The notes beneath the pieces were generated by a model that had not been told where the DNA came from, ran no database searches, and worked only from the letters and a program-made list of their open reading frames with translations. Shown in pieces: positions 1-57,510 of a DNA stretch of 64,000 nt. The stretch lies in the IMG/VR virus record IMGVR_UViG_3300028410_000746; one strand, given 5' to 3'. Numbering within the stretch: position 1 is the stretch's first letter; every line of letters begins with the position of its first letter. The position numbers and the translations under genes were made by a program. The stretch is from a virus (taxonomy: Duplodnaviria > Caudoviricetes).

Positions 1-524
1 TGGGCAGAGTAGCCCAAGGTCAGGAGCTTGAGGTAGGCCATGTAGCAGGGGTTGAACAGGACCTTGATGTCGAAGTGGTTGAGCCCTGACCCCTTACACT
101 TCTGCTCCAGCGTGGAGATGTAGGGACACGTGATCTCCGTGCTGTCCCAGTTGTATCCTTCCACGAAGGCGGAAGCGGCGGCATCCTCCGCCCACTGTCG
201 AACCTTGGTGAGGGTGTCCAGGGGGCGATCACGAACTCGTCGGTGCTTGATCGCCTCCTCAAACACCAGATCGTATTCACGCTGGAGGTAGTCCTGAAGA
301 CGCAACCCCTTCGAGGCGGAGGTACGACGTGGGCGAGCCCCAGCACCAAGAGCTGCTTCACGTGCAAGCGTGAGGGTCTCCTCCTTGGTTCGGTAGCTCG
401 GATCTTCGGCCGTGATCAGGCCCGCCTGGATGGCGGTCGTAATCGCGACGCGGTAATGCGCGGTCTCTGGCTTTGTATCGTAGAACTCGACAGCTTCCAG
501 GACGTCTTGTGCGGTGGGCTTCAT
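1..524 (-). CDS. Hypothetical protein, runs off the window start (MKPTAQDVLEAVEFYD...LKLLTLGYSA>)
   Basis: Translated by hand, not in the ORF track. ATG at 524 after GGAG; open for 174 codons to the window edge. Confidence 0.7.
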   Translation of the reverse strand, partial: MKPTAQDVLEAVEFYDTKPETAHYRVAITTAIQAGLITAEDPSYRTKEETLTLAREAALGAGARPRRTSASKGLRLQDYLQREYDLVFEEAIKHRRVRDRPLDTLTKVRQWAEDAAASAFVEGYNWDSTEITCPYISTLEQKCKGSGLNHFDIKVLFNPCYMAYLKLLTLGYSA

Positions 525-577
525 TTGAAGGCTCCAGGTTGTAGATAGAGTTAAGGATCGCGCTCTTGTTGCTTGCC

Positions 578-952
578 TCAGGATTTACTTCCAATGCGTA
601 GGGCGGTACCCGAGCGCGCGTTGCCACCCACGCTCAAGCATGTGAGAGAGGTACCCGCGCGTACATCACCTGCGATGCCCTCCCCTACAGTCACGCTGCC
701 TCCCGCCTTCACCTCTCCCGTCACACTGCCCCTTTCCACGTGTACGGACCCCACATCGCCAGGGAGGGTCACGCGGAACTCTTCATTGTCCGTGACCACC
801 TCTCCATGCACTTCATCATCGACGAGGATTGTGTACCGTACGACGACCTTCACGCCCTTCCGCTCTTCGCGCGTCCCACCTCCAATAGAAATGTGCGCGC
901 CCGAGATGGTAGAGTTGGAGATGTTCCCCGAGATCGTGATGTTCTTGCTCAT
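578..952 (-). CDS. Hypothetical protein with Gly/Val-rich beta-solenoid (bactofilin-like) repeats
   Basis: AGGAG RBS; repeating GxV/GxI hexapeptide-like pattern; promoter at 988-1017. Confidence 0.65.
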   Translation of the reverse strand: MSKNITISGNISNSTISGAHISIGGGTREERKGVKVVVRYTILVDDEVHGEVVTDNEEFRVTLPGDVGSVHVERGSVTGEVKAGGSVTVGEGIAGDVRAGTSLTCLSVGGNARSGTALRIGSKS

Positions 953-987
953 GTGCCTTTCTCCTGAGTGTGAAACGGGTCAGATAG

Positions 988-1017
988 GATGTACCACAGC
1001 ACATGAGCGATGGTAAA
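988..1017 (-). promoter_or_regulatory. Early-type promoter TTTACC-N18-TACATC with TGTGG extended -10
   Basis: Weaker member of the repeated TTTAC...TGTGG-TA motif family. Confidence 0.45.
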
Positions 1018-1085
1018 GCACGAAAAAGCCCCTCCGTGCGGCAGCTCTTCAGCTACGACATGGAGGGGCTTTGAGGGGTCGATCT

Positions 1086-1445
1086 TCAGACGCTCAGGGA
1101 GGCCTTGCCGTAGTACGAGTTGGACATCGCGGACGCCTTCCAGCCCCACTCGTCACGGCAATACTGCAAGAACTGAGACCGCTCCAGAACCACCTCTTCC
1201 TTGACAGACATGCTGAACATGTCGATCACCTCCTCGTAGTCCTTGACATGGCTCGTAGGGCACTGACCCTCAAGCCTCTTGAGCTTCCGGGGGAAGGACG
1301 TGAGGTCCGAGACATCCATCTCCTCACACGTCTCCTGGAGGTCCTCGCGCCACAGCTTGAGCGCCTCCAGGTAAGTCTTCTCGTGCGTCTCCATGTTAGC
1401 TTCGAGTCGCTCCAGCAACTCCTCCGTCTTGACCGTAACCTGCAT
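1086..1445 (-). CDS. Conserved-looking phage hypothetical protein (MQVTVKTEELLERLEAN...)
   Basis: AGGTGGAG RBS before ATG 1445; helical protein with a SHVKDYEEVIDMFSMS...DEWGW motif. Confidence 0.7.
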   Translation of the reverse strand: MQVTVKTEELLERLEANMETHEKTYLEALKLWREDLQETCEEMDVSDLTSFPRKLKRLEGQCPTSHVKDYEEVIDMFSMSVKEEVVLERSQFLQYCRDEWGWKASAMSNSYYGKASLSV

Positions 1446-1552
1446 CTCTCCACCTCTGTACATGCCCATCTTGATATCCTCGATCGCGAGTGAGCGTCGA
1501 AGGTAACTCAGACATGCCTCGCCGTCAAGTCGGGGGGTATCTTGAAAGAGGC

Positions 1553-1582
1553 TTGACACATCCGGCGTGTTGCGGTTACAGT
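1553..1582 (+). promoter_or_regulatory. Sigma70-type promoter of CRISPR array 1 (TTGACA-N18-TACAGT)
   Basis: Perfect -35; the same architecture lies upstream of array 2. Confidence 0.65.
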
Positions 1583-1592
1583 AATGAAGCCT

Positions 1593-1630
1593 GGAGCGGT
1601 GGAGAGCGGTGGAGAGCGGTGGAGAGCGGT
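1593..1630 (+). repeat. Tandem 10-mer GGAGAGCGGT x3 plus a partial copy
   Basis: Read directly; lies between the array-1 promoter and its leader. Confidence 0.9.
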
Positions 1631-1712
1631 GACCTTGTTTGGCACCGAACCTGAGAAGTCTTTGAAAACCGAATACTTACGTCATTCCGCTCATGTGACT
1701 TCTTGGCACAGA
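1629..1712 (+). promoter_or_regulatory. CRISPR leader 1 (84 bp)
   Basis: AT-richer segment abutting repeat 1; about 90% identical to the reverse complement of 55365-55448. Confidence 0.85.
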
Positions 1713-2312
1713 CCTTTCCCCACGCACGTGGGGATGTTCCCATGTAGCAAGACATGTAGTAGGAGGCGCTGGGCCTTTCCCCACGCACGTGGGGATGTTC
1801 CCTACAGGAGTTCCTTGGGGGCTATCTGAGGGGGCCTTTCCCCACGCACGTGGGGATGTTCCCGTGGGGCGGTCTGGATGAGGCAGGCATCCTCACCTTT
1901 CCCCACGCACGTGGGGATGTTCCGCGTCCGCATCAAGGGCCGCAACCTGGGTGGGCCCTTTCCCCACGCACGTGGGGATGTTCCCTCACCTCGAAGGGTC
2001 CCCGCCCCCTCAAAGTCCCTTTCCCCACGCACGTGGGGATGTTCCCTTCCTCCAGGATCTCAGTGTCTTCGGGAACGTCCTTTCCCCACGCACGTGGGGC
2101 TGTTCCTGTTCCTGTTCCTGTTCCTGTTCCGCCTTGGCTCCCAGGACCATCGCTCGTGACGAGCCCTTCCCCGTACACGCGGGGGTGTTCCCTCTGTGCT
2201 ACCGCAGCGTCGACCTTGGCCCCCTTCCCCGCACACGCGGGGATGTCCCGTCCAAAATCGTCCGTGGTCCCCCGTGAGGCCCTCTTCCCCACGCACGTGG
2301 GGACTTTGTTCC
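1713..2312 (+). CRISPR. CRISPR array 1, type I-E-like: 10 repeats (consensus CCTTTCCCCACGCACGTGGGGATGTTCC, 28 bp) and 9 spacers
   Basis: Repeats start at 1713, 1774, 1835, 1896, 1957, 2018, 2079, 2164, 2222 and 2282. Period is 61 bp with spacers mostly 33 bp; 7-bp hairpin TCCCCAC-GCAC-GTGGGGA; last repeat degenerate. No cas genes in the window. Confidence 0.97.
2101..2130 (+). repeat. (TGTTCC)5 expansion of the 3' end of CRISPR repeat 7
   Basis: Read directly: four extra copies inserted before a normal 33-bp spacer (2131-2163). Confidence 0.95.
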
Positions 2313-6198: not shown

Positions 6199-9100
6199 AT
6201 GGCCTTGACCCCCACCATTGCTCTAGAGGGCGCCTCGACGTTTGCGGAGCGGCTCGCCGTGGTGACCTCGATACGAGACCAGACGATCGTAGGAGAGCTG
6301 GCGGAGGCCGTGGTAGACATTCAGGTTCGGGTCAACGGAGGGGCGTTTCGCTCGGACGCCTCTCTGGTAGCGTTTGATCAGACGGGGTTCACGGTCCCGA
6401 ATCCATCAGCGCTGCCGGAAGGGTTGAGGCTGGCGTTCGGGCCCAACACGATTGAGATCCGCACGGTCGACGTCACGGGAGCGGTTAGCACTCCCGCCAC
6501 CGCTCAGATTGAAGTGACGCGCGCCCAAGACCTTGACCTCCTGGTCTCGGCTCCCACCGGTCTGCGTGTCCGCCGTCGCTCCAGCGCTGTGGAGGTCGTA
6601 TGGGCGGAGAACCTCGAAACGTCCGTGATCGGGTACAACGTCTGGGCCTCGACGGAGGCCGGTGGAGGTTCAGCGGGATACTTCCGACTCAACCCCAACC
6701 TCATCACCACGCCCGCCTTCTCCGAGGATGAGCTGGTGGACGTGGAGTCGGCTACGCTGACCTACACCTCCACGGCCGGCTCGCTTCGGATCGCCTTGAC
6801 CGAGGAGGACTTTGAAGACGTCACCGTGGCGACGGTTGGAAACTTCACCCTGGATACGTCGCTGGCCAGTGACCCCTTGCAGGTGACTACGAACGTCCAG
6901 TCGATCCAGACCATCATCTACCTCAACTTCGTGCACGACCGGGAAGACAGCGCCACGCTCAACAACGAGCAGTTCGTGGCGATCCCCAACGATGAGCCTC
7001 TCTACTACGTGATCACAGCCCTTGCGCTGGACCCCGTGACCAACCAGCAGGTGGAGAGCGTCTACAGCTCCGAGCTGGTAGGCCTCCCGCTCGTGCTGGA
7101 TACCTCGTTGACTGAGGTGCGACCCAGGACGCGTGAGGAGATCATCCGTGACTACCTCACGACCCTGGTGACCGAGAACAATCAGATCAGCGGCATCCCC
7201 GGCTCGGTCACTCGCGACATCCACATCGAGCCCCCGGCATCCGAGGCCGAGCGTCTGCACTTCGTGGCAGACTTCGTACGTCGCTCAAGGTCCTTTGCGA
7301 CCCTGGTAGCCATTGACGATCTTGATGGAGATGGCATCACCGACGTGACCAACTCCTACAAGGTAGCTCTCCAGGCTTCCTTGGGTCTGACCGACCTTGC
7401 GGATGTCCAGACGCTCATTGACGACTCCTTCGACGCGCTCGCGTCAAACGTGCAGGTGACCCGTGGCGGCCAGACGCAGGCCGTTGGACAGGCCGTGTTC
7501 TTCACCCGCAGCGAGCCTACCACAGATCGAGTGGTTGAGGCGGGCACGGTCATTTCGACCCAGGGGACACCTGCCATCACGTTCGAGACGACCGCGCGCG
7601 TGGTGCTGCCCTTTGCGGACCGGGAGAGCTACTTCAACCTCTCGACGAACCGCTGGGAGATCGTCTCACCCATCCGTGCCATCAACGCCGGCCTCGCTGG
7701 GAACGTCACCTCAGGACAGATTGATACGGTGATCGGCTCAGGTACCAGCCTCCAGGTCGTCAACACGGAGGTCACTCGCTTTGGCCGAGACGAGGAGTCG
7801 AACCTGGACCTCGCAGAGCGTGGCATCCTCGCCTTCTCTTCGGTGGACTCGGGTACCGCAGGGGGCTATCTGGCGACCGCGCTCAAGCAGATCGGAGTCT
7901 TCCGGGCCCTGGTGGTCAAGTCTGGCGACGACTCCATGGTTCGCGATTGGGACCCCGTGAGGATGAAGCAGATCGGAGGCAAGGTCGACGTGTGGGTTCA
8001 GGGGAGCGACCTCAACACAGTCACGGAGCCCTTCGCGCTGACGTTTAGCGTCGCGCGTGGCATTCAGTTCGTGCTCGACTCCAACCCCGCCGACCTCACC
8101 TTCATCACCAACGATCCCCGGATCACCCCGACGAGCCCGATCACTGAGGTGCTGGGAAGCACCGCGTCTCAGATCGCACAGGGCTTCGCCTTCCGTAACG
8201 CGACCACGGCGCAAGACTTCAACCTCACCGGCGTGGTCATTCTGGACTACAACCGCGTCCGGCTCGACTCAGGGCTCGCCCAACCCGTCCTGGCAGTCAA
8301 CGACGTGGTGCTCGGGGATGTCCGCTTCCAGTCTGGTGCCTCCTACGAGCCGCGCCGTCAGCCTATCTTCGACGTGGACAGCCTACGCTCGACCACCGAC
8401 AACGTGGCCTTGACCGAGGACAGCAACTTCCGCTTCATTCAGGACGATGACCCTTTGCTCACGGGGCGCTCTCCTCGCGCACAGGACCGCATCCTGATCA
8501 CGCCCGTGGGCGGCGTGCCTTCAGGTGCTCAGGTGCAGGTCAACGACGAGAGGCGAGTCCTGGTAGGCCAGAACCCCGTCGCGTTGGCCAACCTGGGAAC
8601 CAACAGCCTCACGGTACGAGTCTTCGACCTCACACGCACCGTGGAGTACGCCGGGCCGTCTGCGGCCAGCCCCGACTTCTTGCTCGTTGAGGGAGACGAG
8701 AGGACCCCTGTGAGGCTCCAACGCGTAGCCAGTGGGCTCATCGGCAACGGTGAAGAGGTCTCGGTCGACTACCTCCATGACGAGAACTTCGAGCTGGTCT
8801 ATTCGGTCAATGATCTCCCGGCGCGCGTTCAGAGTGCGGTGGACATCCAGTCGCACGTCACCGCTGACGTACTGGTCAAGAGCGCTATCCCTCTTGAGGT
8901 CGACCTCGAAATGACCGTACGTCTCCAGGACTCAGCCTCTCAGGCGGTCGTGGACGCAGCCCTGAAGACCCAGATCTCCCAGCTCCTCAACTCCAAGGGG
9001 ATCGGAGAGGGCATCTACCAGTCCGACGTGGTGCGTGTGGTCGAGAATACGGCTGGCGTGATCTTCGTGGTGGTGCCCTTCGCGCGCATGGCGGCCGCTG

Positions 9101-9597
9101 ACGACGCTCTAATCGTTCGCGAGACCCTGAACACGGCCTCGACCTTCCTGGAGCAGAGAGGGGCAGTGAAGGCGTACCTGCTCACGGACGCGCTGGACTA
9201 CCCGACCACGGACGGCGGGGGACCGGTAGACAGCGCGCGCGGGATCTTCGTGGACACGCAGGCCCGTACCCTCGTGGACACATACGATGAGCTGTTTGTG
9301 AGCGGGACGCGCGCGCTTATCCTCGGCAACCTGGGACGCGCCATTCCAGGGTACTCGGACGACGTGACCTTGACAGCTCAGGGCTTCACGACACCTGAAG
9401 AGCGAGACCAGGAGCGATCACGCTTGACCGCCAACAAGGTCCTCGTGAGCTTGCCCGATGGCAGCGTGCCGGATCTCTTCTCGTGGGCGGCGACGTACGT
9501 AGTATCTGGCGACTCGGGAGCCACGTCTATCGTCCCCAGCCCGATCAGCTACGTTGAGCTTGGCGACCTCTCCATCACCTACACCAAGTCCACGTAA
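6199..9597 (+). CDS. Baseplate J-like (gp6-like) wedge protein with N-terminal Ig/FN3-like domains
   Basis: Motifs PGSVTRDI..EP, A.G.AVF, GT.IST...ITFETT, A.NAG.AGNV, GRDEESN.DL..R and G.VDVWV; 1132 aa. Confidence 0.85.
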   Translation: MALTPTIALEGASTFAERLAVVTSIRDQTIVGELAEAVVDIQVRVNGGAFRSDASLVAFDQTGFTVPNPSALPEGLRLAFGPNTIEIRTVDVTGAVSTPATAQIEVTRAQDLDLLVSAPTGLRVRRRSSAVEVVWAENLETSVIGYNVWASTEAGGGSAGYFRLNPNLITTPAFSEDELVDVESATLTYTSTAGSLRIALTEEDFEDVTVATVGNFTLDTSLASDPLQVTTNVQSIQTIIYLNFVHDREDSATLNNEQFVAIPNDEPLYYVITALALDPVTNQQVESVYSSELVGLPLVLDTSLTEVRPRTREEIIRDYLTTLVTENNQISGIPGSVTRDIHIEPPASEAERLHFVADFVRRSRSFATLVAIDDLDGDGITDVTNSYKVALQASLGLTDLADVQTLIDDSFDALASNVQVTRGGQTQAVGQAVFFTRSEPTTDRVVEAGTVISTQGTPAITFETTARVVLPFADRESYFNLSTNRWEIVSPIRAINAGLAGNVTSGQIDTVIGSGTSLQVVNTEVTRFGRDEESNLDLAERGILAFSSVDSGTAGGYLATALKQIGVFRALVVKSGDDSMVRDWDPVRMKQIGGKVDVWVQGSDLNTVTEPFALTFSVARGIQFVLDSNPADLTFITNDPRITPTSPITEVLGSTASQIAQGFAFRNATTAQDFNLTGVVILDYNRVRLDSGLAQPVLAVNDVVLGDVRFQSGASYEPRRQPIFDVDSLRSTTDNVALTEDSNFRFIQDDDPLLTGRSPRAQDRILITPVGGVPSGAQVQVNDERRVLVGQNPVALANLGTNSLTVRVFDLTRTVEYAGPSAASPDFLLVEGDERTPVRLQRVASGLIGNGEEVSVDYLHDENFELVYSVNDLPARVQSAVDIQSHVTADVLVKSAIPLEVDLEMTVRLQDSASQAVVDAALKTQISQLLNSKGIGEGIYQSDVVRVVENTAGVIFVVVPFARMAAADDALIVRETLNTASTFLEQRGAVKAYLLTDALDYPTTDGGGPVDSARGIFVDTQARTLVDTYDELFVSGTRALILGNLGRAIPGYSDDVTLTAQGFTTPEERDQERSRLTANKVLVSLPDGSVPDLFSWAATYVVSGDSGATSIVPSPISYVELGDLSITYTKST

Positions 9598-21261: not shown

Positions 21262-22980
21262 TCAGTTGACTTGATTGAGGTCGGTTCCTGCCAGGAGCGA
21301 AGCCATGCGGTCGCGGTTCTCGGCCGGCACGAAGTCGCCTTCCAGCTCCACGATGCGAGCCGAAGACGCGTACTTCGCGCGGACACCCTCACGACGAACC
21401 GGATCGTAGCCGACCCATCCGAGGATGGTGCGGATCTCCTCTTCCATCGTCTGAATGAGCGGCGGCTTGGTCCGCACCACCTCCTCCAGGATCTCGGTCG
21501 TGAGCACCTTCTCCTCGGTCATGTAGGCCTTGCGCATGCCGTCACACACCACCTGCTCAATCTCACGGCCCGTCAGGTTGGACGAGGACGCAGCCAGGAG
21601 GTTCGTATCCACCGCATCCTTCTTGCCCATGCCATCCCTCCAGTATTTGGAGAGCTGGATGTCGAAGCAGATCTTGCGCGCCTCGACGTCCGGGAGCCCG
21701 ACGAAATACTTCTCCTCGAAGCGAGAGACCAGCTCGGGCGGAAGAGACGTGATGCCGTTGGCGGTCGCGATGACGAAGATGTCCTCAGCGTGGTCCTGGA
21801 ACCAGCTCAGGAACGTACCGATGACGCGCGCCGTCGTGCCCGAGTCCGAGAACGACGAGGACTGACTCCCCGCGAGACCCTTCTCAATCTCATCCACGAA
21901 GACCACGGCAGGGGCCACCGCTTCGATGTCCTGAAGCGCGCGCCTCATGTTGGCCTCGGAGTCACCCACGCGCGCCGAGAAGAGCGCCGACGGGTCGAAA
22001 CGTACGAACGAGACGCCCATCTCCTTGGCCAGCGCCTTGGCCATCAGGGACTTGCCGCAGCCGGGGACGCCGATCATCAGGAGGCCACGGGAGTTGGGGA
22101 CTCCCCACGCACGCCCCTCCGGGGTCCACGCCTCGCGCACTTCCATCAGGCGACCCTTGAGCGCGTCCAGACCGGCTACGTCGTCAAACGTGAGCATCGG
22201 GTCGACCAGCTCCAGCAGGTCGGACTTCTCGATGATGGCCCGCCTCTCTTGAACCATGCTGTCGAGGGTGACCTTGTAGTCCGGGGAGGAGATCGTCAGC
22301 CGCGTGACGATCTCACGCACTTGGTGTAGCGTCAGACCCCGACACGCCTTCACGAAGTCTTCGCCCACCTCTTCCTCGGCGTCTCGGCCGGCCGGGAGCG
22401 TGTAGTCCGGCATGTAGGCCTGGAAGTGACTCTCCAGGCTCGTCAGGTAGCTCTTGAGGTGGGGGTCGCTCGGGTTGCCGTAGTCCAACACCGAGACGTA
22501 CGGCTCCAGCTTGGGAGGGAGCTTACCCGTGGGACTCACCAGGATCAGCATGCGCCTCATGCTCGTGTTGCGGCCCGAAGAGCACGCGATGTTGAGGATG
22601 CGCCGCTGCACCTGCGCATCGTTGAGGTACACGTCCGCGTCCAGCATCAGGTAGAAGAGGTCCGCGCCCTTGTTACCCTGGCGCGTCTCATACACCGTCT
22701 GTAGCATTTGCAGCGGGTTGCGCGATGCGGCATCGTCCACCGTGCTCGCGAGCGTGTTCATCTCGTCGAGGTAGCCTCCGGCCGCGCGCGTGCCGAACGA
22801 AGGGTTCCAGACCTGTAGCTCATACGGCGGTGAGACGTCCTTACCCTCCCTCTCACGCGCCGCCTCCGCCGCCTTGAGGAACTTGCCATGAAGCTCCTCA
22901 ACCAGCCTCACCTCATCATTGGTCTTAACCATGAGGACGGGTGTGAGTGAGCGGAGATAATCGAGAAGCGGTGCGGCCAT
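21262..22980 (-). CDS. Ycf46/SpoVK-family AAA+ ATPase
   Basis: Degenerate N-terminal AAA domain; Walker A GVPGCGKS, Walker B VFVDEIEKG, IATAN...LPPELVSRF. Confidence 0.9.
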   Translation of the reverse strand: MAAPLLDYLRSLTPVLMVKTNDEVRLVEELHGKFLKAAEAAREREGKDVSPPYELQVWNPSFGTRAAGGYLDEMNTLASTVDDAASRNPLQMLQTVYETRQGNKGADLFYLMLDADVYLNDAQVQRRILNIACSSGRNTSMRRMLILVSPTGKLPPKLEPYVSVLDYGNPSDPHLKSYLTSLESHFQAYMPDYTLPAGRDAEEEVGEDFVKACRGLTLHQVREIVTRLTISSPDYKVTLDSMVQERRAIIEKSDLLELVDPMLTFDDVAGLDALKGRLMEVREAWTPEGRAWGVPNSRGLLMIGVPGCGKSLMAKALAKEMGVSFVRFDPSALFSARVGDSEANMRRALQDIEAVAPAVVFVDEIEKGLAGSQSSSFSDSGTTARVIGTFLSWFQDHAEDIFVIATANGITSLPPELVSRFEEKYFVGLPDVEARKICFDIQLSKYWRDGMGKKDAVDTNLLAASSSNLTGREIEQVVCDGMRKAYMTEEKVLTTEILEEVVRTKPPLIQTMEEEIRTILGWVGYDPVRREGVRAKYASSARIVELEGDFVPAENRDRMASLLAGTDLNQVN

Positions 22981-23058
22981 GTTCTTACCCTTTGATTGAC
23001 TTCTGTACTGGAAACGAATGGTCAGCGACGATACCGTACTACAGCGGAGCGGTCAACG

Positions 23059-23595
23059 TCAAGTAGTAGACTCAACGGTCTTCCAAGTGTCCATCGGATG
23101 CTGGATGAAGTACACCCGGTTGATGGGGACAGGGGTGTTGATGAGGTCGCCTCGGTCGGGGTCGTGCTCGTAGTCTCCAGCAATCACGCTCTTCTCATCC
23201 TTGGCGAGCGCGACGTCGTTCACCATTCCGCAGCTCGGGCACGTGCACCGGAGCACCTTGTCACCTGCCAGGGAGAAGTTGCTCCAGATCGGGGCCTTAC
23301 CCTCCACCACCTCGCAGGAGGCCGCCGTGAACGTCAGCTCCTTGGGGATGCCCATGTCAATGCCCACCGGGAGGTTGTAGTCCGGGTTGATGAAGTAGAA
23401 GAGCGGCTCCGTACATGAGCTACTACAGCAGCGCTGCACGTAACACGAGTAGGACTCCTGAGAGTACGAAACCGTGCTCTCGTAGTAGGAGAGGGAGGCG
23501 TCCCCCGAATCGAGCCCACGACCCACATACGTGGAGGTCTCCGTATCCTCCGACAACAGGTCATGGTTCTTGAACATCTGGTCAAGTCGTGACAT
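23059..23595 (-). CDS. Cys-rich (putative Zn-binding) hypothetical protein
   Basis: CCSSSC and CTCPSC motifs; promoter TTGACG-N18-TATAGT at about 23643-23672. Confidence 0.7.
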   Translation of the reverse strand: MSRLDQMFKNHDLLSEDTETSTYVGRGLDSGDASLSYYESTVSYSQESYSCYVQRCCSSSCTEPLFYFINPDYNLPVGIDMGIPKELTFTAASCEVVEGKAPIWSNFSLAGDKVLRCTCPSCGMVNDVALAKDEKSVIAGDYEHDPDRGDLINTPVPINRVYFIQHPMDTWKTVESTT

Positions 23596-25477: not shown

Positions 25478-28400
25478 TTAGGGCGTTCGGATCTCGCCTC
25501 GGAGCCCCAGGAAGTCTGCGAGCAGTCGGACCGCCTCCGTCTCGACACCCCACCCCACGTCCTCCGAGACGAGCACCTCGCCGTCCCAGCTCTCCAGTCT
25601 CAGGGTCTGGTTGGCGATCTCTCGGGTGGCACAGAAGTCCCGGATCTGTCGGAAGACCATGACCGAGTGCATCGAACCTCGCTCGTCCAGGGGGGCCAGC
25701 GGATTGCCGTGGAGTCGGTACGTCAAGATGGGACCCCCAAGGTACTTGCTCGTCTTGTTCTGGTAGCTCATGTATGCGTCTCCAAAGTCGCAGATGTCGT
25801 CCTTAACGAGGACCTCGGCGCCCGTCTCCTCATCTACCGCGAGGAGACCCCTCGGCAGGACCTCCTCTCCTTGCTCGTTGATATACCACATCCCCGGCTC
25901 GAACTCGATGTGGCGCCAGAGGGACTCGGGCACCGGCTCCGGCGCGCGTACGGACGGGTTGTAGGGGTGGAACTCGGACCAGTTATAGCACACGTCAAAA
26001 GTCGGCCCAAGCTCAATATCACAGCGCAAGGGCACCGGCCACTTGAGCGCTCGCCCGAGGTCGGTCATCTTCTCGACGATCACCGGCACCAGCTCGTCGA
26101 GCTTGTCCTTGCGCATCTCGAAGACAAGCTCATCGTGAATGCAGATCATGAGGCGGCAGTCGTCGAGCTTGTCGTTCGCTTTGAGCCAGTCAAAGATCCT
26201 CCACATGCCGTACTTGGTCAGGTCTCCCGTCGCGCTGCCCTGGATGATGCCGTTGACCGCGTTACGCTGCGCCTTGGCCGAGATCCAGGAGTCGTGGTTG
26301 TCAATGTCTGGCAGGCGGATGCGACGCCCGACCGCCGTTTTGACTTGCTTGTTTTGTGCGCACTCCTTGTGAATGTCGCTGATCCAGGCTCGCAACTTCG
26401 GGAGCCCACTGAGCATCTTCTCCTTGATCTCTGCGCCTTCATCACGGGACACGCCCGTCGCGCGCGCCACCGCTGACCCGCCGCCTCCGTAGAGGACCGA
26501 GAAGTTGGCGCCCTTGGAGTTCTGGCGGTACTTCTTGAAGTCAGGCTTGCGCAGGACCTCATCCCCATACACGATCTGGGTCGTGAGCGTGTGCAGGTCA
26601 CCGATCTTGTCGCTGCCGCACTTGGGACACAGCGCCGGGGGAGTCCCCACCGGCGTGCTGTAGCGCTCATCGTTGAACTCGTGCTTACACGTCGAGCAGC
26701 GGAAGAACTCGTTGATCCAACGCGGCTCCCCGGACAGGTTCGCCGCGAGACGAAGCTCGACGCCGCTCTGGTCGATTGCGACGATCACAAACCCAGGGCG
26801 CGCCTTGATGGCGGGACGCACTGAGGAGTCCAGGCTCAACATCTTCGTGTTCGGCTTGGCGATGCCCTCCTCGTTCACGAAGGGCTCATCCTCGTACGTA
26901 CAGGACTCCTGGAAGGGGCAACCCTCACACGACTTGGCGACGCATCGCTCTTCGTTCTTGTACGTATCGAGCACGAAGTGGTTGTCGTAGACGCGCGCCA
27001 GGAAGTCCACCCCTCGGAGCTTGTCAAAGCTCTCGTACCAGACGGCATCCGGATTGCCCGGCCCCTTGGGGCGAGAGATGATGAGCTTGGATGCGAACTT
27101 GCCCCGGTTGTAGCACGCAGGCGCCGACTGCACGTTGATCCCCGAGTACCCGTGATCCCACTTGCCCTTGGACGCGGCGAAACGTCCCGTATCCACTCGG
27201 TGCGGGTTGAAGGAGAAGTGGGTGGATTCATCCTGGAGAACGTGCGACGGGTTGCGCGGCAGCGCGTCATTGCGGTAGCCGTCCGTGTTGGTCTGGAGCG
27301 GCCCAAGGTAGGTCGAGTCAACCTTCTGGAGACCGCGATAGGTCCGAATGAGCTTCAAGAAGGGGAAGGTGTCTCCGACCTTCTCGCACAAGGCCTCGAT
27401 CACATCGTCTGAGGTTTTTACCTGACCGGACTTCTCCGTCCGAACCAGTTCGGCCTTGATGAGCCCCTTGCCGTGGAGGTAGTCCATACCCGCTCCCAGC
27501 GTGGCGGGCTTGCTCACGTCGTTCACCGTCATGGGGAACCCAAAGCCGGAGAACCCCTGGGCGATCTGCTCGCACACCTCCTGAGTGTACTCCTGCACCT
27601 CGTAACGCACTCGGGAGAGGTAGTCCAGATCAATGTGAGGCCGGTTACGTTCCATCCACCGCGTCGCCGCGACGTTACCCCTCTCCAGACTGTAGACCCC
27701 CTTCTGCTCGGCGCGCACGCTCGGAGGCGACCCCTTCTCACAAGGCTCCAGGTCCACGACTCGGAGCTGTTTGGCCCCCTTTACGACCTTGCCGTGCTCA
27801 TCTCGGGGATACTCCAGCCGAGGCACCGCGTAGTGGGTATCAAACAGCACGTAGAGCTTGTAGGTGCAGATGGCGTCCGCGCCCGCGTACCACAGCGTAG
27901 CCATGTCAGACGGGTCCAGCGTGGAGAAGTTGTAGTCCTTCAGGCTCTCGTCGAACAGCTCCGGCAGCTCGATCATCTCCAGGCCGAGGTGGCGGGAGGA
28001 CAGACTCTTGAGGCCATGTCGCTTGCTGGACGAGTCGTGGAGGTAGCTCAGGATCAACGTGTCCTCGAAATCCTCGATGCCTCCCACCTCGTAACCGGCG
28101 CCTTCGAGGATCTCATGGTCAAAGAGCGTGTTGTGGAAGATGCACACGCAGACGTCGAGCAGGCGTTGGATGTGTGGGAAGACGACATCGGGCTCCAGGT
28201 TGTGCGACGCTCCTCCCTGGCGATGCCGCACAGGCACGTACACACCTTCGTGGCCATCGTAGCTCATGCAATACCCGACGATCTGGTCGACCGTCTCTCC
28301 GGAGGGCCTCCGGCGCGTATCGAGGCCCGTCGTCTCAATGTCCAACGCACACAGCTTCGAGGCGCACGCCCGGTCCACGTAGGCCTTGAGGGCTTCCTCC

Positions 28401-28504
28401 GTGTCGAGCAGCGTGAACTCGTGATCGTGCATCCACTCCTTGGGCTTGACCTCGACGACTTCGCGTAGCCCGAAGAACTCGTCCAGGCCCATCTGATCAC
28501 TCAT
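25478..28504 (-). CDS. polA: Family A DNA polymerase with 3'-5' exonuclease domain
   Basis: ExoI LDIETTGLD, ExoII FHNTLFD, ExoIII YAGADA; motif A IDQSGVELR, motif B RQNSKGANFSVLYG, motif C IHDELV. Confidence 0.95.
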   Translation of the reverse strand: MSDQMGLDEFFGLREVVEVKPKEWMHDHEFTLLDTEEALKAYVDRACASKLCALDIETTGLDTRRRPSGETVDQIVGYCMSYDGHEGVYVPVRHRQGGASHNLEPDVVFPHIQRLLDVCVCIFHNTLFDHEILEGAGYEVGGIEDFEDTLILSYLHDSSSKRHGLKSLSSRHLGLEMIELPELFDESLKDYNFSTLDPSDMATLWYAGADAICTYKLYVLFDTHYAVPRLEYPRDEHGKVVKGAKQLRVVDLEPCEKGSPPSVRAEQKGVYSLERGNVAATRWMERNRPHIDLDYLSRVRYEVQEYTQEVCEQIAQGFSGFGFPMTVNDVSKPATLGAGMDYLHGKGLIKAELVRTEKSGQVKTSDDVIEALCEKVGDTFPFLKLIRTYRGLQKVDSTYLGPLQTNTDGYRNDALPRNPSHVLQDESTHFSFNPHRVDTGRFAASKGKWDHGYSGINVQSAPACYNRGKFASKLIISRPKGPGNPDAVWYESFDKLRGVDFLARVYDNHFVLDTYKNEERCVAKSCEGCPFQESCTYEDEPFVNEEGIAKPNTKMLSLDSSVRPAIKARPGFVIVAIDQSGVELRLAANLSGEPRWINEFFRCSTCKHEFNDERYSTPVGTPPALCPKCGSDKIGDLHTLTTQIVYGDEVLRKPDFKKYRQNSKGANFSVLYGGGGSAVARATGVSRDEGAEIKEKMLSGLPKLRAWISDIHKECAQNKQVKTAVGRRIRLPDIDNHDSWISAKAQRNAVNGIIQGSATGDLTKYGMWRIFDWLKANDKLDDCRLMICIHDELVFEMRKDKLDELVPVIVEKMTDLGRALKWPVPLRCDIELGPTFDVCYNWSEFHPYNPSVRAPEPVPESLWRHIEFEPGMWYINEQGEEVLPRGLLAVDEETGAEVLVKDDICDFGDAYMSYQNKTSKYLGGPILTYRLHGNPLAPLDERGSMHSVMVFRQIRDFCATREIANQTLRLESWDGEVLVSEDVGWGVETEAVRLLADFLGLRGEIRTP

Positions 28505-28522
28505 CGCATCTCTCCTTCGTAT

Positions 28523-28990
28523 TTACGTAAGCCAGCGGAACACCCAGATGTCTGAGCGCCACAGCTCCACGATTCGGTTCAAACATACCAACGCATCCTG
28601 AGCGCATTCGACCCCCACGTCGTAGCACGGAGGCTGATTCTTATGGTCCGCCACGCACTTGCGCGAGTCCCACGTTGGACACGTCGCGCGGTGTTGGCAG
28701 GGGTGGTACGCCTTGGGCAGTCGTCTCAAGCAGTTCTGAGGCGCAAGGGCTCCCGCGTCAATCAGGGGCCGCGCGTAGTTCTGTCTCAAGCTGAGGTAGT
28801 CATGATGCCCCAGTTCCGGAATCAGGTCTACCATCTCTTCCAGGCCTCCGGGATCTTTCGCGCTCCGAGCCTCAAGCTCCAGGCGCAACGGCTCCCACTC
28901 AGGCTCCCACGTCCCGTCTTCCATCGTCTGAATGCCGTAGACCTTGATGGAGCCCCATCCCGGATGCGCGGCGGTAAATTGTGTCGGCAT
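28523..28990 (-). CDS. Cys-rich hypothetical protein
   Basis: 155-aa ORF in the replication operon. Confidence 0.7.
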   Translation of the reverse strand: MPTQFTAAHPGWGSIKVYGIQTMEDGTWEPEWEPLRLELEARSAKDPGGLEEMVDLIPELGHHDYLSLRQNYARPLIDAGALAPQNCLRRLPKAYHPCQHRATCPTWDSRKCVADHKNQPPCYDVGVECAQDALVCLNRIVELWRSDIWVFRWLT

Positions 28991-45206: not shown

Positions 45207-48200
45207 TCAGGTGATCCAGTGCACGCTGGTCTCGATGAAGATGTCACCGGTAGAAGCGCCCTCGTTGAACTGAGTACCTCCCGAAGCCGGACGCACGAGC
45301 ACGTTGGCGACCTGGACGTTGTTCGTGAACGCCGCCAGGATCACCGCGTCACTGGTCGGAGAGCTGAAGGGGTACCCCTCCATCTGTCCACCCGTAATGC
45401 TCAGGTTCGCGTTCGTCCCGACCCCGGTGTTGTTGGTCTCCACAGCGGCGGTGCCACCTCCAGCTCCACGGAAGTAGCAGCCGGTGATGTTCACGCCGTC
45501 CATGAGACCGTCAACGTAGATGCCAGCTCCCACCGTATGCACGATCTGACAGCCCGTGATCACTGCCTGAGGCTCGTCTGCGAATCCTCCGTCCGTAGAC
45601 TCACGAATCCGGATGGTCGCCGTGGCTCCCGCTACCGCGTTGGTAAGCTGAGTACCCGTGATGCGTACGAACCCGCCCTCAACGTCCACGACCTCTGCGA
45701 GACCCGTGGCCCCTCGAAGCTGGCAGTTGCTGATCTGGAGCTGCGAACCGTTGGAATCCTGGAACGCGCGGATACGGCCCTCAATCGTGGAGTTGTCCAG
45801 GAACATGCGGCCCGCGTCGAGCGTGATCCGGCAGGACTCGCCCACTCCCGCGATTACGCCTTGAGCGATCTGCTCCTCAGTCAAGCCCGCGACGAACTTG
45901 CAGTCCGAGATGCGAAGCACCGTCCGGCTTGACGTGGAGCCACCCGAGATGCTCAGGTTGTTACCCGTACATCCCTGGAGAGTAAGCTCGCAACGATCTC
46001 CCAGGAGGAACGCATTGAGCGCGCTGCCTGCAAGCTGGTCGTCAATGAACTCACAGTCCGTGAACGACATGATCGCACCGTCGAGCCCGAAATTGCCGTC
46101 CACGATGCTGTTGGAGACGTCGTAGGTGAACTTGCACCCTCGCGCGCGCACACGCAGGGGAGCGATGAGGGTCGAGATGCCCTGCACGATCGAAGATGTT
46201 CCTCCATCAATCGTGCAGTCGCTCATGTCCACGTTCATGTTCACGATGCTCGTACCCGCCGCGCCGTCTCCGACGAGCCGGGAGTTGAAGCTGATGAACA
46301 CGCGCGTGTTGTTCATGGAGAAGCGTCCGTCCGCTCCCGAGAAATCGAACAGGTTGGTCGTGGGCCCCGTATCACTGCCACCCTGGAGCAGCGAGTCACG
46401 GATCACCATGCGGTTGTCACCGCTGACCCCAAACGTTACGAGACTTTGAGAGAACACGGAGACGAAGCGCACACGCTCAAAAACAGCCCTCGTATCCACC
46501 GAGAGGAACGTCGCGACCTGCTCGGGGACACCCAAGCTTTGCGCGAAGACGTCCAGGTCCCTCAAGGTCACATCGTCACTGCCCGCACCGAAGCTGCGGA
46601 AGATGTCAGGTGCCGTAGAGAGCGCCTGCGTGCCGAAGTTGTTCAGGATGAAACGGCCGTTACAGATCTCAACGTTCTGCGCGCCCTCATCGTTTGCGTT
46701 CGGGAGGTCGACGCTGCGACCCAGGACGAAGGGCCCAGTGCCCGCACCCCCCGTGTAGTTGGTGATCGTGAGGTCGTGACCTGCGAGGTCGAGCTTGATG
46801 TTAGAGGGGATGAAGACCTCATCCTCGCTGGCTCCACTAAGCGTGACGTCTTCCAGGAGACGGATCGTGAAGGCACCCAGCGGGTCCGGGTTGTTGTCCA
46901 CATCCTCCGGGTTGAGCAGCCCAACATAGGAGCACGCAGCGCGGAGGGTCTTGAACATCCCCTGAGCACCGACAGTCACTGCCGTGGTGTCGAGCACCGC
47001 AGACGAGAACCTGCGAAGGTCGTGCAGCTCCGAGACCGCAATAGACGCCCCGTCCCAGTCAACCTGAGCCAGGGGGATGCCCACGTTCGAGCCCCCCTCA
47101 AACGTCTCATCGAACGCGCCGTCAGTTGACACGATCGTCTCAACCTCCAAGGTGGTCACGTCAAAGTAGAAGAAGTACGTGCCGGCAGCCTCTCCCGTGA
47201 AGTCCAGGCTTGAGGCAACTCCGGTCGCAAACACGGACCCACCGCTGATCGCGAGGAGGGGATGCTTGACCACCACCTCGGTGACGTCTACCTGCGTCGC
47301 GGAAGCGAGCGAAGAGACTCCACCAGACACGACGAACTTCGGATACGCGAGGTTGCTCACCTGAGACGCGCCACGCAGGCTCGACTCATAAGGCACAGCG
47401 CGACCCGAGAGCGCACCTGAGATGCGCACGTCGGTCACGTCCGTCTCGATACCCTGGCTGGTCGTATCAAAGCTGAGCTGACGCTGGGGTGTGTTGGCGT
47501 AGCCCCACTCCTGTACGACCTGGATGGCGTCCACGACCGCGTTTGACGGGAAGCCAAGCGCCACGTGAGCGTTACCAAGACCAAAGTACAGCTCTCCAGT
47601 CGCCTGGATGCGTACACGATCTCCGGTCGCGTCTGTGATAGCCTCCGAATCGAAACGCTGAGGCGTCAACCCCAACGCGGTCTCGGCAGCGGTGTAGGCT
47701 GCCAGGAGGTCCCCGGCAAGATCTGCGGCCGAGGGCGCAGCTCCCGGTGCGATGGTGAACGAGAAGTCCACGCCGTTGGCCGTGATCTCGATGCCATCGT
47801 TGGTATCCAGGACCACGACGGGCCATATGCCATCGTTGGACGAGAGCGTCTGCTTGAGGCCCTCGCTCATACGCACGTCGTACAGGTTCGTACCGGAGAG
47901 CGTCGGACGAATCACCGTACCAGCCCTACGAAGCTCCGTATCGGCCAGACCCAGGGCCACGTCCGTGCGAACCGCTCGCGCCGACGTACGGTCACGTGAG
48001 AGCGACTCAAGGCGGACTCCCTGACCTCCGGCGAACGTCGAACCTGACTCCACCAGGAGACGCTCCTGTGGGGGCGTGTCATGGTAGATGTCGGCAGCCG
48101 ACGTGGAGGGCAAAGAGGCCTCCAGACCTCGCTCACCGACCTCCAGACGTACCTTTCGGTGACCACGGAACGCGTTGAGGCTCGGGTCGGTAGAGAAACC

Positions 48201-49565
48201 CTCGACCCCCTGAGCGACCTTGGGGAGTGTCTGCCCATCAAGTGCGGCAAAGACCGCGAAGAGACGCGGCGCGCCGTCGGCATCCACGTAGTTGTTGGGG
48301 TTGAGCTGCCCACCCGCTGCCGGGATCGGCGTAGAGAGACGCAACACGCCCTGAGGCCAGTCGACGAAGATCTGGTCGTCTCCCGCGCCGGCAGGGTCGA
48401 TGGTCAGGCCTTCCAGATCCGTAATCGGGTTTGAGAGGTCCGCCAGACCTCCCGCCGTGGCGGGATAAAGCGTGAGCCCGTAGCCCGGCGTGCCGGAGGT
48501 ACCTGAGAAGAGAGCCAGCGACGCAGCAACACCCTGTCCCACCATTTGAGGAGAGATCAGGCTCTTGACGCGGATCGTGTCCAGGATGTCTCCACCCTCG
48601 GCCTCGAACACGGAGTCTCCAAAGAACTCGGCGCGAGGGACAAAGGGGGCGCCTGCAAGCTCTCCCACCGTAAAGGCCTTCTGCACGGCGGAGGGCACTC
48701 CATCCTGTGCGCGCGGAAGCTCCACGCCAAAGAAGGGAGAGAGCACCACGTCCTCGACGTTGGTACCTCCCGGAGTGAAGGCCACGCTCTCCACGTAGTA
48801 GAACGCGCTGTTGTAGACGGCCCAATCACCCGCCGTGAAGGTCTGAGCGTCCGTATGCTCCGCGACCACGTTGAGACGACCCTCGGCCGTGATCGTGGCG
48901 GTTGCAGACGAGCTATCCATGGAGACCGAAGAGATCCTCACGGGCCACGAGTTCGGCTTACGTGCGAGGTACACCCGCGAAGCCGTCTCATCGCGGCCCG
49001 GCCACGGGAGCAGCTCGACGGGCTGAGCGATCACGACCTGCCAGTACACGTCATTGAGCGTACCCAGGACCGAGCTGTAGATGCGGTCGAGCGTGAGGTC
49101 TCCGCCCACGACGTTGGTGATCTCATAGGTGCCGACAACGGCCGACGCACTTGAGATGTTGGCGACGTTGGAGACCACCAGACGCAGGTTGGCCAGACCA
49201 AAGGTACCCGTAAGGTAGGTCATGTCTGCCAGATTCGTATTGAACAGGGACGAGCCGTTGTTGAGCGTACCCTCGGTACCCTCTGCGACCACGCGCGCGC
49301 CAAACACCTGCACCTGCTGGACCAGACGACGGTGACGCCTTGGTGCCGTGGCCGGTGCGGACTGAGCAAAGAGGGCGTAGTCGTCTACATCCCCCAGGAA
49401 GCGCACGTCGGCGCTCGCTCCCAGGAGGTCGCCAAGGTCATGAAGCGCGGGTGCGGGGATAGCTCCCGACATGAGCGGCTCATCACGAACGCTCAATGCG
49501 TCGTCTGTGCTCGTCTTGCCTTCAAGGGCCTTGCGAATGATGTCGTCGTTGAGGCTGCTAGACAT
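45207..49565 (-). CDS. Tailspike/fibre with C-terminal right-handed beta-helix (pectin-lyase-like)
   Basis: 1452 aa; TVGAQGMFKTL cap followed by many I/V-x-x-C-x-F/I repeats. Confidence 0.75.
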   Translation of the reverse strand: MSSSLNDDIIRKALEGKTSTDDALSVRDEPLMSGAIPAPALHDLGDLLGASADVRFLGDVDDYALFAQSAPATAPRRHRRLVQQVQVFGARVVAEGTEGTLNNGSSLFNTNLADMTYLTGTFGLANLRLVVSNVANISSASAVVGTYEITNVVGGDLTLDRIYSSVLGTLNDVYWQVVIAQPVELLPWPGRDETASRVYLARKPNSWPVRISSVSMDSSSATATITAEGRLNVVAEHTDAQTFTAGDWAVYNSAFYYVESVAFTPGGTNVEDVVLSPFFGVELPRAQDGVPSAVQKAFTVGELAGAPFVPRAEFFGDSVFEAEGGDILDTIRVKSLISPQMVGQGVAASLALFSGTSGTPGYGLTLYPATAGGLADLSNPITDLEGLTIDPAGAGDDQIFVDWPQGVLRLSTPIPAAGGQLNPNNYVDADGAPRLFAVFAALDGQTLPKVAQGVEGFSTDPSLNAFRGHRKVRLEVGERGLEASLPSTSAADIYHDTPPQERLLVESGSTFAGGQGVRLESLSRDRTSARAVRTDVALGLADTELRRAGTVIRPTLSGTNLYDVRMSEGLKQTLSSNDGIWPVVVLDTNDGIEITANGVDFSFTIAPGAAPSAADLAGDLLAAYTAAETALGLTPQRFDSEAITDATGDRVRIQATGELYFGLGNAHVALGFPSNAVVDAIQVVQEWGYANTPQRQLSFDTTSQGIETDVTDVRISGALSGRAVPYESSLRGASQVSNLAYPKFVVSGGVSSLASATQVDVTEVVVKHPLLAISGGSVFATGVASSLDFTGEAAGTYFFYFDVTTLEVETIVSTDGAFDETFEGGSNVGIPLAQVDWDGASIAVSELHDLRRFSSAVLDTTAVTVGAQGMFKTLRAACSYVGLLNPEDVDNNPDPLGAFTIRLLEDVTLSGASEDEVFIPSNIKLDLAGHDLTITNYTGGAGTGPFVLGRSVDLPNANDEGAQNVEICNGRFILNNFGTQALSTAPDIFRSFGAGSDDVTLRDLDVFAQSLGVPEQVATFLSVDTRAVFERVRFVSVFSQSLVTFGVSGDNRMVIRDSLLQGGSDTGPTTNLFDFSGADGRFSMNNTRVFISFNSRLVGDGAAGTSIVNMNVDMSDCTIDGGTSSIVQGISTLIAPLRVRARGCKFTYDVSNSIVDGNFGLDGAIMSFTDCEFIDDQLAGSALNAFLLGDRCELTLQGCTGNNLSISGGSTSSRTVLRISDCKFVAGLTEEQIAQGVIAGVGESCRITLDAGRMFLDNSTIEGRIRAFQDSNGSQLQISNCQLRGATGLAEVVDVEGGFVRITGTQLTNAVAGATATIRIRESTDGGFADEPQAVITGCQIVHTVGAGIYVDGLMDGVNITGCYFRGAGGGTAAVETNNTGVGTNANLSITGGQMEGYPFSSPTSDAVILAAFTNNVQVANVLVRPASGGTQFNEGASTGDIFIETSVHWIT

Positions 49566-54879: not shown

Positions 54880-54971
54880 AGTGAATTAGAGAAGCCCCTA
54901 CGCCGACGGCTCAAGCACCTCCGCGATACATTCGCAAAGGTCGTCACAGAAGACCGGCCCCCCGTCCTGCG

Positions 54972-55364
54972 GGAACATCCCCACGTGCGTGGGGAAGGGA
55001 CCTGATGCCCGCGCGTCATGATCTCGGCCACGGGGACATCCCCGCGTGTGCGGGGAAGGGTCGTGTGCCCCCTTCGCGAAGGTCTTTCCGACGGGGACAT
55101 CCCCGCGTACACGGGGAGGGGCTAGCGGCCTCACCCGCGCCCGTTGAATGGACGGGAACATCCCCGCGTGTGCGGGGAGGGGCTCTAGGATACTATGATA
55201 CTTCTTTTCAAAGTGGGAACATCCCCGCGTGTGCGGGGAGGGGGTGCCTGCGGCTCCCGCGAGGCTGACGAAGCTGGGGACATCCCCGCGTACACGGGGA
55301 GGGGGACGGCTCGACCGGGACAGCCTCCGGGACCGGGGGACATCCCCGCGTACACGGGGAGGGG
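54972..55364 (-). CRISPR. CRISPR array 2, type I-E-like: 7 repeats (mostly CCCCTCCCCG[CT][AG][CT]ACGCGGGGATGT[TC]CC) and 6 spacers of 32-33 bp
   Basis: Repeats at 54972, 55033, 55094, 55155, 55216, 55277 and 55337; 61-bp period; inverted relative to array 1. Confidence 0.96.
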
Positions 55365-55448
55365 TCTGTGCCAAGAAGTCACATGAGCGGAATCACGTAA
55401 GTATTCGGTTTTCAAAGACTTTCAGAGTCCAGTGCCAAACAAGGTCAC
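55365..55448 (-). promoter_or_regulatory. CRISPR leader 2 (84 bp)
   Basis: Reverse complement is about 90% identical to 1629-1712. Confidence 0.85.
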
Positions 55449-55474
55449 CCTTGGGCGACACTCTCGACGTCCTT

Positions 55475-55504
55475 ATGGTAACCTTGAGGGTGGAGGCGTG
55501 TCAA
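55475..55504 (-). promoter_or_regulatory. Sigma70-type promoter of CRISPR array 2 (TTGACA-N18-TACCAT)
   Basis: Same architecture as 1553-1582; 26 bp from the leader. Confidence 0.65.
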
Positions 55505-57403: not shown

Positions 57404-57510
57404 GGGCAACTCACGGCTTGAGGGAGGTTCTCAAAGGGTATCTTGCTCGGGCGGTGACCCTGCAAGTGAGACTCCTTATAGAACGCTTTACTCAAGGCCG
57501 TCAAGTGCTA

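Follow-up and report, generated by a model that had tools for sequence, protein, structure and literature searches.

CRISPR-Cas systems without spacer-acquisition genes are already known from phages. Huge phages carry such systems, which lack Cas1, Cas2 and Cas4 and have compact arrays (Al-Shayeb et al. 2020, PMC7162821). In a survey, 84% of phage systems were without adaptation genes, and subtypes I-C, I-F and II-C were prevalent (PMC12676247). The locus described here is of this known kind, in the rarer subtype I-E. We analysed a 64,000-nt stretch of phage DNA (the window), bases 58049-122048 of the linear, 125,429-bp IMG/VR virus record IMGVR_UViG_3300028410_000746, and a CRISPR array near its start. 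The five arrays of the record are labelled A to E, the window's first array being array D; positions marked "genome" are those of the record, all others those of the window. On balance, and with moderate confidence, we regard array D as a satellite array of a phage-borne I-E locus: CRISPR RNAs (crRNAs) made from its own promoter would load the phage Cascade, and phage Cas3 would degrade their targets.

Like the huge-phage systems of Al-Shayeb et al., this one resides on an environmental phage of at least 373 kb, keeps its catalytic residues, shows no Cas1, Cas2 or Cas4 in the available sequence and has compact arrays, here of 7, 7, 8, 10 and 12 repeats (the solitary repeat of array C included). 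It differs from them in subtype, a type I-C variant, types II and V and Cas-phi being those highlighted there (PMC7162821), and in its five dispersed arrays, two leader classes, gene order cas3-cas7-cas6-cas5-cas8/11 and fused Cas8e-Cas11. For its kind it is somewhat unusual in being I-E, in having its genes rearranged and fused, and in its number of arrays with two classes of leader. I-E systems are common in bacteria and hardly recorded in phages.

Vibrio phage ICP1 is said to carry cas1 and cas2-3 and to acquire its spacers itself. The ICP1 system (Seed et al. 2013) is of type I-F, has Cas1 and targets the competing element PLE. Both are lytic-type phages with a class 1 effector of their own, a Cas3-type nuclease and arrays, whereas the present locus is I-E and showed no adaptation genes in 125 kb and no protospacer in the sets searched. 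Viral mini-arrays (Medvedeva et al. 2019, PMC6858448) are, like array D, short, promoter-driven and located on a viral genome, with a presumed role in interviral conflict. Unlike array D, which has a full interference module 3.1 kb away, they occur without viral cas genes and use host Cas proteins (PMC6858448). We rejected a Cas-less viral mini-array as a description of array D, since interference genes lie on the same genome.

In Escherichia coli K-12 the I-E genes follow the order cas3, cse1, cse2, cas7, cas5, cas6e, cas1, cas2, with separate Cse1 and Cse2 and two separated arrays. Array D shares with this system a 29-nt repeat with a 7-bp stem and tetraloop, 32-nt spacers, a 61-bp period and an AT-rich leader; in both, several arrays accompany one cas operon and the last repeat base varies with the spacer. 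The phage locus departs from K-12 in its rearranged order, its Cse1-Cse2 fusion, its very divergent Cas proteins and the lack of cas1 and cas2 in 125 kb.

We searched the whole 125-kb record with Cas family models and scanned the open reading frames (ORFs) of its 46-62 kb region with Pfam and NCBIfam I-E models. An intact I-E interference module occupies genome 48658-56614 on the minus strand, in the order cas3, cas7e, cas6e, cas5e and a cas8e-cas11 fusion. All six I-E families were matched (models Cse1, Cse2, Cas5e, Cas6e, Cas7e, Cas3 HD and Cas3 C), the Cse1 match lying over the Pfam cut-off and under that of NCBIfam. Four of the products are as follows:

Just before the window, minus strand: Cas3, 876 aa, with HD, DEAD-helicase and Cas3 C-terminal domains (core E 2e-58)
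Genome 52553-53815, minus strand: Cas7e (E 7e-59)
Genome 51706-52356, minus strand: Cas6e (E 9e-24)
Genome 48658-50865, minus strand: Cas8e-Cas11 fusion in one 735-aa ORF, with Cse1 at residues 4-500 and Cse2 at residues 579-729

The cas3 gene starts 1,435 bp ahead of the window, at a distance of 3.1 kb from the first array-D repeat. Residues 9-716 of Cas3 align to the solved I-E Cas3 4Q2C (E 2e-52), and the motifs HDIGK (HD), GAGKTE (Walker A) and DEVH are present. Cas6e has a histidine inside the block YTAHQFVWDLF, which we take to resemble the known catalytic-His block of Cas6e. In the short gap between cas7e and cas6e we observed a repeat-like hairpin (CCTTTCCCCGCTCACGCGGGGG..., genome 52456-52484, minus strand); it may serve the operon as an attenuator or as a site for Cas6e.

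An initial annotation, made from the window alone, had reported no cas gene, called the array Cas-less and proposed that it loads host Cascade. The first statement is right for the 64 kb of the window and wrong for the genome, with the module 3.1 kb from array D. A cas operon in the same genome had been named beforehand as the finding that would overturn the Cas-less label, and for the interference genes this is what we found. The proposed use of host Cascade is likewise not supported, as the same genome encodes Cas3, Cas7e, Cas6e, Cas5e and Cas8e-Cas11 with catalytic motifs. A Cas-less call from a single window needs a look at the neighbouring sequence.

Genes for adaptation were sought in the same record, which is the last third of a 373-kb contig: no match to PF01867 or TIGR03638 (Cas1) or to PF09707 (I-E Cas2) was obtained at E<=1 in these 125 kb, the other 248 kb of the contig lying outside the search. 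The cas module and arrays B, C and D form one extended phage-borne I-E CRISPR-Cas locus at genome 48083-60358. Along the minus strand, array D comes first, itself divergent and on the plus strand; three unknown genes, then a solitary repeat and array C follow, and after two small ORFs come cas3, cas7e, cas6e, cas5e, the cas8e-cas11 fusion and array B. The three unknown genes, at window 3-1559, separate array D from array C and cas3 and have no Pfam family:

1086-1559, minus strand: 157 aa
578-952, minus strand: 124 aa
3-524, minus strand: 198 aa, extending before the window

We considered the 198-aa and 124-aa products as divergent Cas1 and Cas2 and rejected this assignment for want of support; their Atlas look-alikes were uninformative, with scores below 0.9.

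Divergence of the phage Cas proteins is high. Among 1.84 billion representative proteins, one relative of Cas7e is 39% identical, and the others listed are 28-42% identical with E 1e-39 or weaker. Three of 50,697 GenBank phage records contain any Cas7e-like sequence, and one of these three is a Salmonella bacterial contig. A word-based search of 5.8 billion proteins with Cas8e-Cas11 as query found only the query itself, and a Cas7e-based search for such loci in IMG/VR found nothing. The 39% relative is encoded on a 7.9-kb contig, L038, of matching layout: after homologues of the 124-aa and 198-aa genes come a mini-array driven by a promoter, small ORFs, cas3 (50% identical) and cas7. The two homologues (36% identical, E 2e-8, for the 124-aa gene; 39%, E 6e-42, for the 198-aa gene) stand in the same order beside cas3. 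This shared layout argues that the locus is conserved as a unit over its whole extent, the genes between arrays C and D included. Further small arrays and solitary repeats, their hairpins variable, also surround cas3 and cas7 in L038; judged from these sequences, it is a trait of the lineage to have heterogeneous repeats beside a single cas set. As a separate observation, the L038 mini-array upstream of cas3 contains a spacer that matches its own cas3 over 27 of 27 nt (L038:2851-2877 and L038:4062-4088). The match in cas3 is preceded by CCC, the same three bases that end the repeat, and the spacer looks like a self-directed, possibly regulatory, guide.

Array D itself is real: ten 29-nt repeats and nine spacers at 1713-2310 on the plus strand. 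Its 25-nt repeat core has eight matches in the window with at most 3 mismatches, against none in 100 dinucleotide-preserving shuffles. The repeat start-to-start distances are 61 bp six times, then 85, 58 and 60 bp; the counts given by the initial annotation are thus correct, and its 61-bp period applies to repeats 1-7 and not beyond. The array and its upstream region comprise:

1553-1582, plus strand: array-D promoter, sigma-70-like, with TTGACA at 1553-1558, an 18-nt spacer and TACAGT at 1577-1582
1594-1631, plus strand: 10-bp tandem of GAGCGGTGGA in the transcribed leader, 3.8 copies, 100% matches in Tandem Repeats Finder (TRF)
1628-1712, plus strand: conserved leader block of 85 nt, 47% G+C against 61% for the genome
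1713-1741, 1774-1802, 1835-1863, 1896-1924 and 1957-1985, plus strand: repeats 1-5
2018-2046, 2079-2107, 2164-2192, 2222-2250 and 2282-2310, plus strand: repeats 6-10
1713-2107, plus strand: canonical part, repeats 1-7 with six unique spacers of 32 nt, the period being exactly 61 bp
2100-2130, plus strand: microsatellite, TRF consensus CTGTTC in 5.2 copies (GTTCCT when read from the spacer start)
2108-2310, plus strand: trailer, with repeats 8, 9 and 10 (terminal) preceded by spacers 7, 8 and 9 of 56, 29 and 31 nt, respectively

I-E repeats end GGGGAU...CC on the strand on which array D is read. Repeats 1-7 consist of CCTTTCCCCACGCACGTGGGGATGTTCC followed by a last base that varies (C, C, C, G, C, C, T). 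The sole exception to their 28-nt identity is in repeat 7, where C replaces A right after the stem, in the handle. Positions 5-22 of the repeat fold as a 7-bp stem closed by a 4-nt loop, with 7 nt behind it, at -12.8 kcal/mol (z -3.0). Array D agrees with I-E arrays, whose repeats of 28-29 nt have a G+C-rich 7-bp stem, a 4-nt loop and a 7-8-nt handle ending in ...CC(G/C), and whose leader and promoter stand at the end with the best-conserved repeats; spacers 1-6, with 32 nt and a 61-bp period, likewise agree with the 32-33 nt and 61 bp of I-E, whereas spacers 7-9 are aberrant. The type I-E designation made at the outset, from hairpin repeats and spacer length, is therefore retained. In PLSDB, the matches of array D are plasmid-borne I-E arrays of Thermus, Streptomyces and enterobacteria. 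The canonical part is predicted, from the repeat and spacer sequences, to give crRNAs of 61 nt with the 8-nt 5' handle AUGUUCCC and a 21-nt 3' hairpin handle.

The promoter proposed earlier for array D also stands. It matches the consensus at 10 of 12 positions, one such site being found against 0.3 expected in 2 kb, and the architecture CTTGACA...GGTTACxxTAA recurs at the same place before arrays A, C and E. The 84-bp leader of the initial annotation corresponds to the conserved block and falls short of the full leader, which, counted from the promoter as transcribed, is about 125 nt long. The array-D leader is identical to that of array E at 81 of 86 positions, to that of A at 71 of 86 and to that of C at 67 of 85; it is unrelated to the array-B leader (53/97). 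An alignment of the class with this leader shows that the 10-bp tandem of array D is missing from the other three members. Between D and E the leaders are 94% identical and the first repeats about 72%, and this conservation of the leader above that of the repeats suggests a constraint on the leader itself.

Beyond repeat 7 the array changes character. A 6-nt unit at the 3' end of repeat 7 has expanded by 24 nt and produced the 85-bp unit, so that spacer 7 consists of 24 nt of slippage and 32 nt of sequence; a crRNA made there would not be in register. Repeat 8 differs at one base from the variant in the distal half of array A (A9-A11), and repeat 9 differs at one base from the variant prevailing in arrays C and E (C2/C3/E6). 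In repeat 10 the array-D stem is back and the 5'-handle sequence is lost; a T-rich run follows, and a terminator-like site lies at 2286-2303. Near-identity of the repeats, claimed for the leader-proximal part, is thus confined to repeats 1-7, and the trailer is not degenerate in the sense first given, with repeats 8 and 9 matching variants of other arrays and not a decayed copy of the array's own repeat. As far as these sequences can tell, the trailer points to recombination between arrays, which fits better than simple decay of repeat 1. Polarized growth through host Cas1-Cas2, a further suggestion of the initial annotation, is weakened: neither cas1 nor cas2 was found in the 125 kb, and recombination suits the trailer better. 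Spacers 7-9 are probably non-functional remnants. We also observed two short tandem expansions, both perfect, inside one 600-bp stretch (a 10-bp unit x3.8 in the leader and a 6-bp unit x5.2 at repeat 7); they point to slippage-prone replication at this locus.

The arrays of the genome, with the solitary repeats, are:

Genome 22770-23416, plus strand: array A, 12 repeats
Genome 48083-48538, minus strand: array B, 8 repeats, directly after cas8e-cas11
Genome 57295-57628, minus strand: array C, 6 repeats and a solitary repeat at 57800, directly upstream of cas3
Window 1713-2310, plus strand: array D, 10 repeats
Window 54971-55364, minus strand: array E, 7 repeats that enclose 6 spacers, period 60-61 bp
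Window 55365-55504, minus strand: leader and promoter of array E, with TTGACA at 55504-55499, an 18-nt spacer and TACCAT at 55480-55475
Genome 27752-27780 (the window starts 30.3 kb further on): solitary repeat whose handle is altered to AAGTTCCT, with a TTGACA promoter and a leader of class 2

The arrays fall into two leader classes. Arrays A, C, D and E share the class-1 leader, with a TTGACA-18-TACxxT promoter and the 85-nt block. Array B and the solitary repeat at 27752, which is separated by 235 nt from the start of a 292-aa ORF downstream (28015-28893), have the class-2 leader, and their repeat begins with GTGT. Across both classes the stem pairs 5-11/16-22 are kept in all 45 repeat copies of the genome (45/45), with a compensatory G-C to A-T change at pair 10/17, and all variants keep the same hairpin and the GGGGAUG flank. 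Array E begins with two repeats of one variant and two of a second, returns to the first, and continues with a third and a terminal repeat of the array-D type. This order is not obtainable by leader-proximal repeat copying and, together with the mosaic trailer of array D, argues for exchange between arrays by recombination.

In E. coli I-E systems the last repeat base is derived from the protospacer-adjacent motif (PAM). The variation of this base in the otherwise identical repeats of array D is the mark of genuine Cas1-Cas2 integration in the past. In the class-1 arrays the base is C in most repeats, in array B it is G in 7 of the 7 that precede a spacer, a difference whose sequence pattern suggests two adaptation sources with different PAMs.

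These two classes bear on an alternative that keeps the host-Cascade reading of the initial annotation for the class-1 arrays alone, so that two effector pools are served: arrays A, C, D and E would work in a host I-E Cascade, and only array B with the phage Cas proteins. The separate leader and repeat classes speak for it, and so do the contrasting last bases, which suggest two adaptation machineries. The repeat core of array D is moreover identical in arrays of a Lentisphaerales metagenome-assembled genome (MAG) and in those of a low-G+C organism in JGI metagenomes, and use of host Cas proteins has been proposed for phage arrays with host-like repeats (Al-Shayeb 2020, PMC7162821). The repeat pattern, in degenerate form, was found at 24 loci of GTDB genomes in many phyla, and no spacer matches exist in either direction between the organisms with this core and the phage. 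Several results oppose the alternative. Class-1 array C is physically part of the cas operon; the hairpin and GGGGAUG flank are common to all variants; Cas7 of the candidate hosts is 29-36% identical to that of the phage; and repeats equally heterogeneous surround the single cas set of L038. Nor did a search of IMG/VR and JGI metagenomes match the class-1 leader in any array. We consider the division into two pools unlikely.

We return to the reading in which array D feeds the phage Cascade. It is favoured by array C, a class-1 array directly upstream of cas3 and in operon orientation. Array D would be transcribed from its own sigma-70-like promoter, and phage Cas6e would cut each hairpin at its 3' base. 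The phage's own Cascade would take up six canonical 61-nt crRNAs and may then recruit phage Cas3, so that DNA of competing mobile elements (or of the host) would be degraded during infection. New spacers, if still arriving, would come through Cas1-Cas2 in trans or through recombination with other arrays. Phage-borne CRISPR-Cas systems are weapons in phage-phage and phage-host conflict and a source of unusual effectors, and this locus lets one ask how much repeat variation one Cas6e and Cascade tolerate.

Some results count against assigning array D to the phage Cascade. Array B, which directly follows the cas genes, differs from array D in its leader, in the 5' end of its repeat (GTGT against CCTT) and in its 5' handle (AUGUCCCG against AUGUUCCC); these differences leave acceptance of the array-D repeat by phage Cas6e, Cas5 and Cas7 only putative. 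Protospacer searches gave only repeat-to-repeat or microsatellite matches in INPHARED phages and PLSDB plasmids, and only repeat or microsatellite matches in 401 genomes of the phylum of the Lentisphaerales MAG. In IMG/VR, scanned with N at every sixth position, spacers D1, D2, D3, D4, D6 and E3 had 0 matches each. No RNA runs containing sequence of the locus were found, and in Rfam no family reached its gathering score for array D.

The searches for targets raise the possibility that array D is a relic, a product of recombination, transcribed or silent, whose guides have no targets or are not loaded. Such an origin would agree with the lack of protospacers in the sets searched, the lack of adaptation genes in 125 kb, the slippage expansions in the leader and repeat 7, the mosaic trailer and a spacer content that is the same in three assemblies. 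It agrees poorly with seven leader-proximal repeats identical over 28 nt bar one A to C change in repeat 7, a near-consensus promoter, a leader conserved above the repeats and intact cas genes; the virome of this lake is also little represented in databases. In addition, one contig from a metagenome of the same lake aligns to the window only at 1925-1956, exactly spacer 4. Its sequence is unlike the window for 255 nt before this match and for 51 nt behind it, neither flank is repeat sequence or occurs in the 125 kb, and the 5' flank ends in ...CTGTA. By our own estimate, chance would give a 32-nt match at >=85% identity in 281 Mb about 1e-4 times per spacer. On the strength of this alignment, the contig is an unconfirmed candidate for a protospacer in the same community, and a target may therefore co-occur with the phage. 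A relic is, overall, improbable.

The solitary repeats bring in a different alternative, namely that array D makes an RNA decoy or regulator (an RNA anti-CRISPR or cr-like RNA) that soaks up host Cas6e or Cas7 or guides Cascade to repress partially matching sites. The genome has solitary repeats with leaders (27752 and 57800) and the repeat-like hairpin between cas7 and cas6e, and in L038 a spacer with a 27-nt match to its own cas3 and a CCC flank follows the pattern of regulatory mini-arrays (PMC10120712). Array D does not have the solitary-repeat architecture: it contains six full-length, unique 32-nt spacers, and we rejected a solitary-repeat RNA anti-CRISPR on this ground. The 37 spacers of the arrays are all unique and none matches the 125-kb record outside the arrays; the best partial self-matches there have 18 of 21 and 16 of 18 identical bases and both belong to array-E spacers, so that no self-match of a D spacer stands out. 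A complete Cas3, nuclease-competent to judge by its motifs, is encoded alongside. A decoy or regulator is accordingly the least plausible explanation, and we hold it to be very improbable.

A further conjecture builds on the favoured interpretation, in which array D supplies the phage Cascade. We offer, tentatively and as more doubtful than that interpretation, a self-contained, very divergent I-E Cascade-Cas3 without adaptation genes, fed by two kinds of array that differ in leader, in last repeat base (C in class 1, G in class 2) and in history. The class-1 arrays would be filled by host Cas1-Cas2 acting in trans on the conserved leader, and then shuffled by recombination. If this were true, the phage would be a collector and re-sorter of guides from another system. 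The locus offers a natural case for the renewal of a guide set without adaptation genes, by trans-acquisition or by array recombination.

The placement of array D on a phage genome, also proposed at the outset, is borne out by the virus classification of the record in IMG/VR, by a Baseplate_J protein and by DNA polymerase and helicase genes of phage type. The Baseplate_J gene lies 3.9 kb downstream of array D:

Window 6199-9597, plus strand: Baseplate_J protein, 1132 aa (PF04865, E 1.2e-16, above cut-off)

As evidence from context, it places array D among contractile-tail virion genes of the phage. Comparison with PHROG gave weak tail and baseplate-hub matches and strong matches to DNA polymerase, helicase and ATPase families of phages. 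Most ORFs of the virion region have no PHROG match and most proteins no known family; the Pfam models for tail sheath and Terminase_6C had no match in the 125 kb, and no tRNAs were found.

CheckV rates the record 27% complete. The same DNA occurs on a 373,477-bp ENA contig (ERZ27315555, k141_181878; 22,208 bp compared, 99.99% identical), of which the IMG/VR record is the last 125 kb. A Logan contig of a lake-water metagenome carries it too (8,881 bp, 100% identical). Contigs of the lake metagenome show the array just as the window does, and their depth is the same to either side of it (16.7 and 15.9). We rejected a chimeric assembly as the source of cas genes on a phage, as three assemblies agree and the flank depth is equal. 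The lake metagenome further contains three spacers that are flanked by the repeat type of the phage (noted at the 2222-2250 region of the window) and are absent from the 125 kb, as well as one class-1 leader variant absent from the same record. More arrays are therefore likely, either elsewhere on the 373-kb contig, in its other 248 kb, or in relatives.

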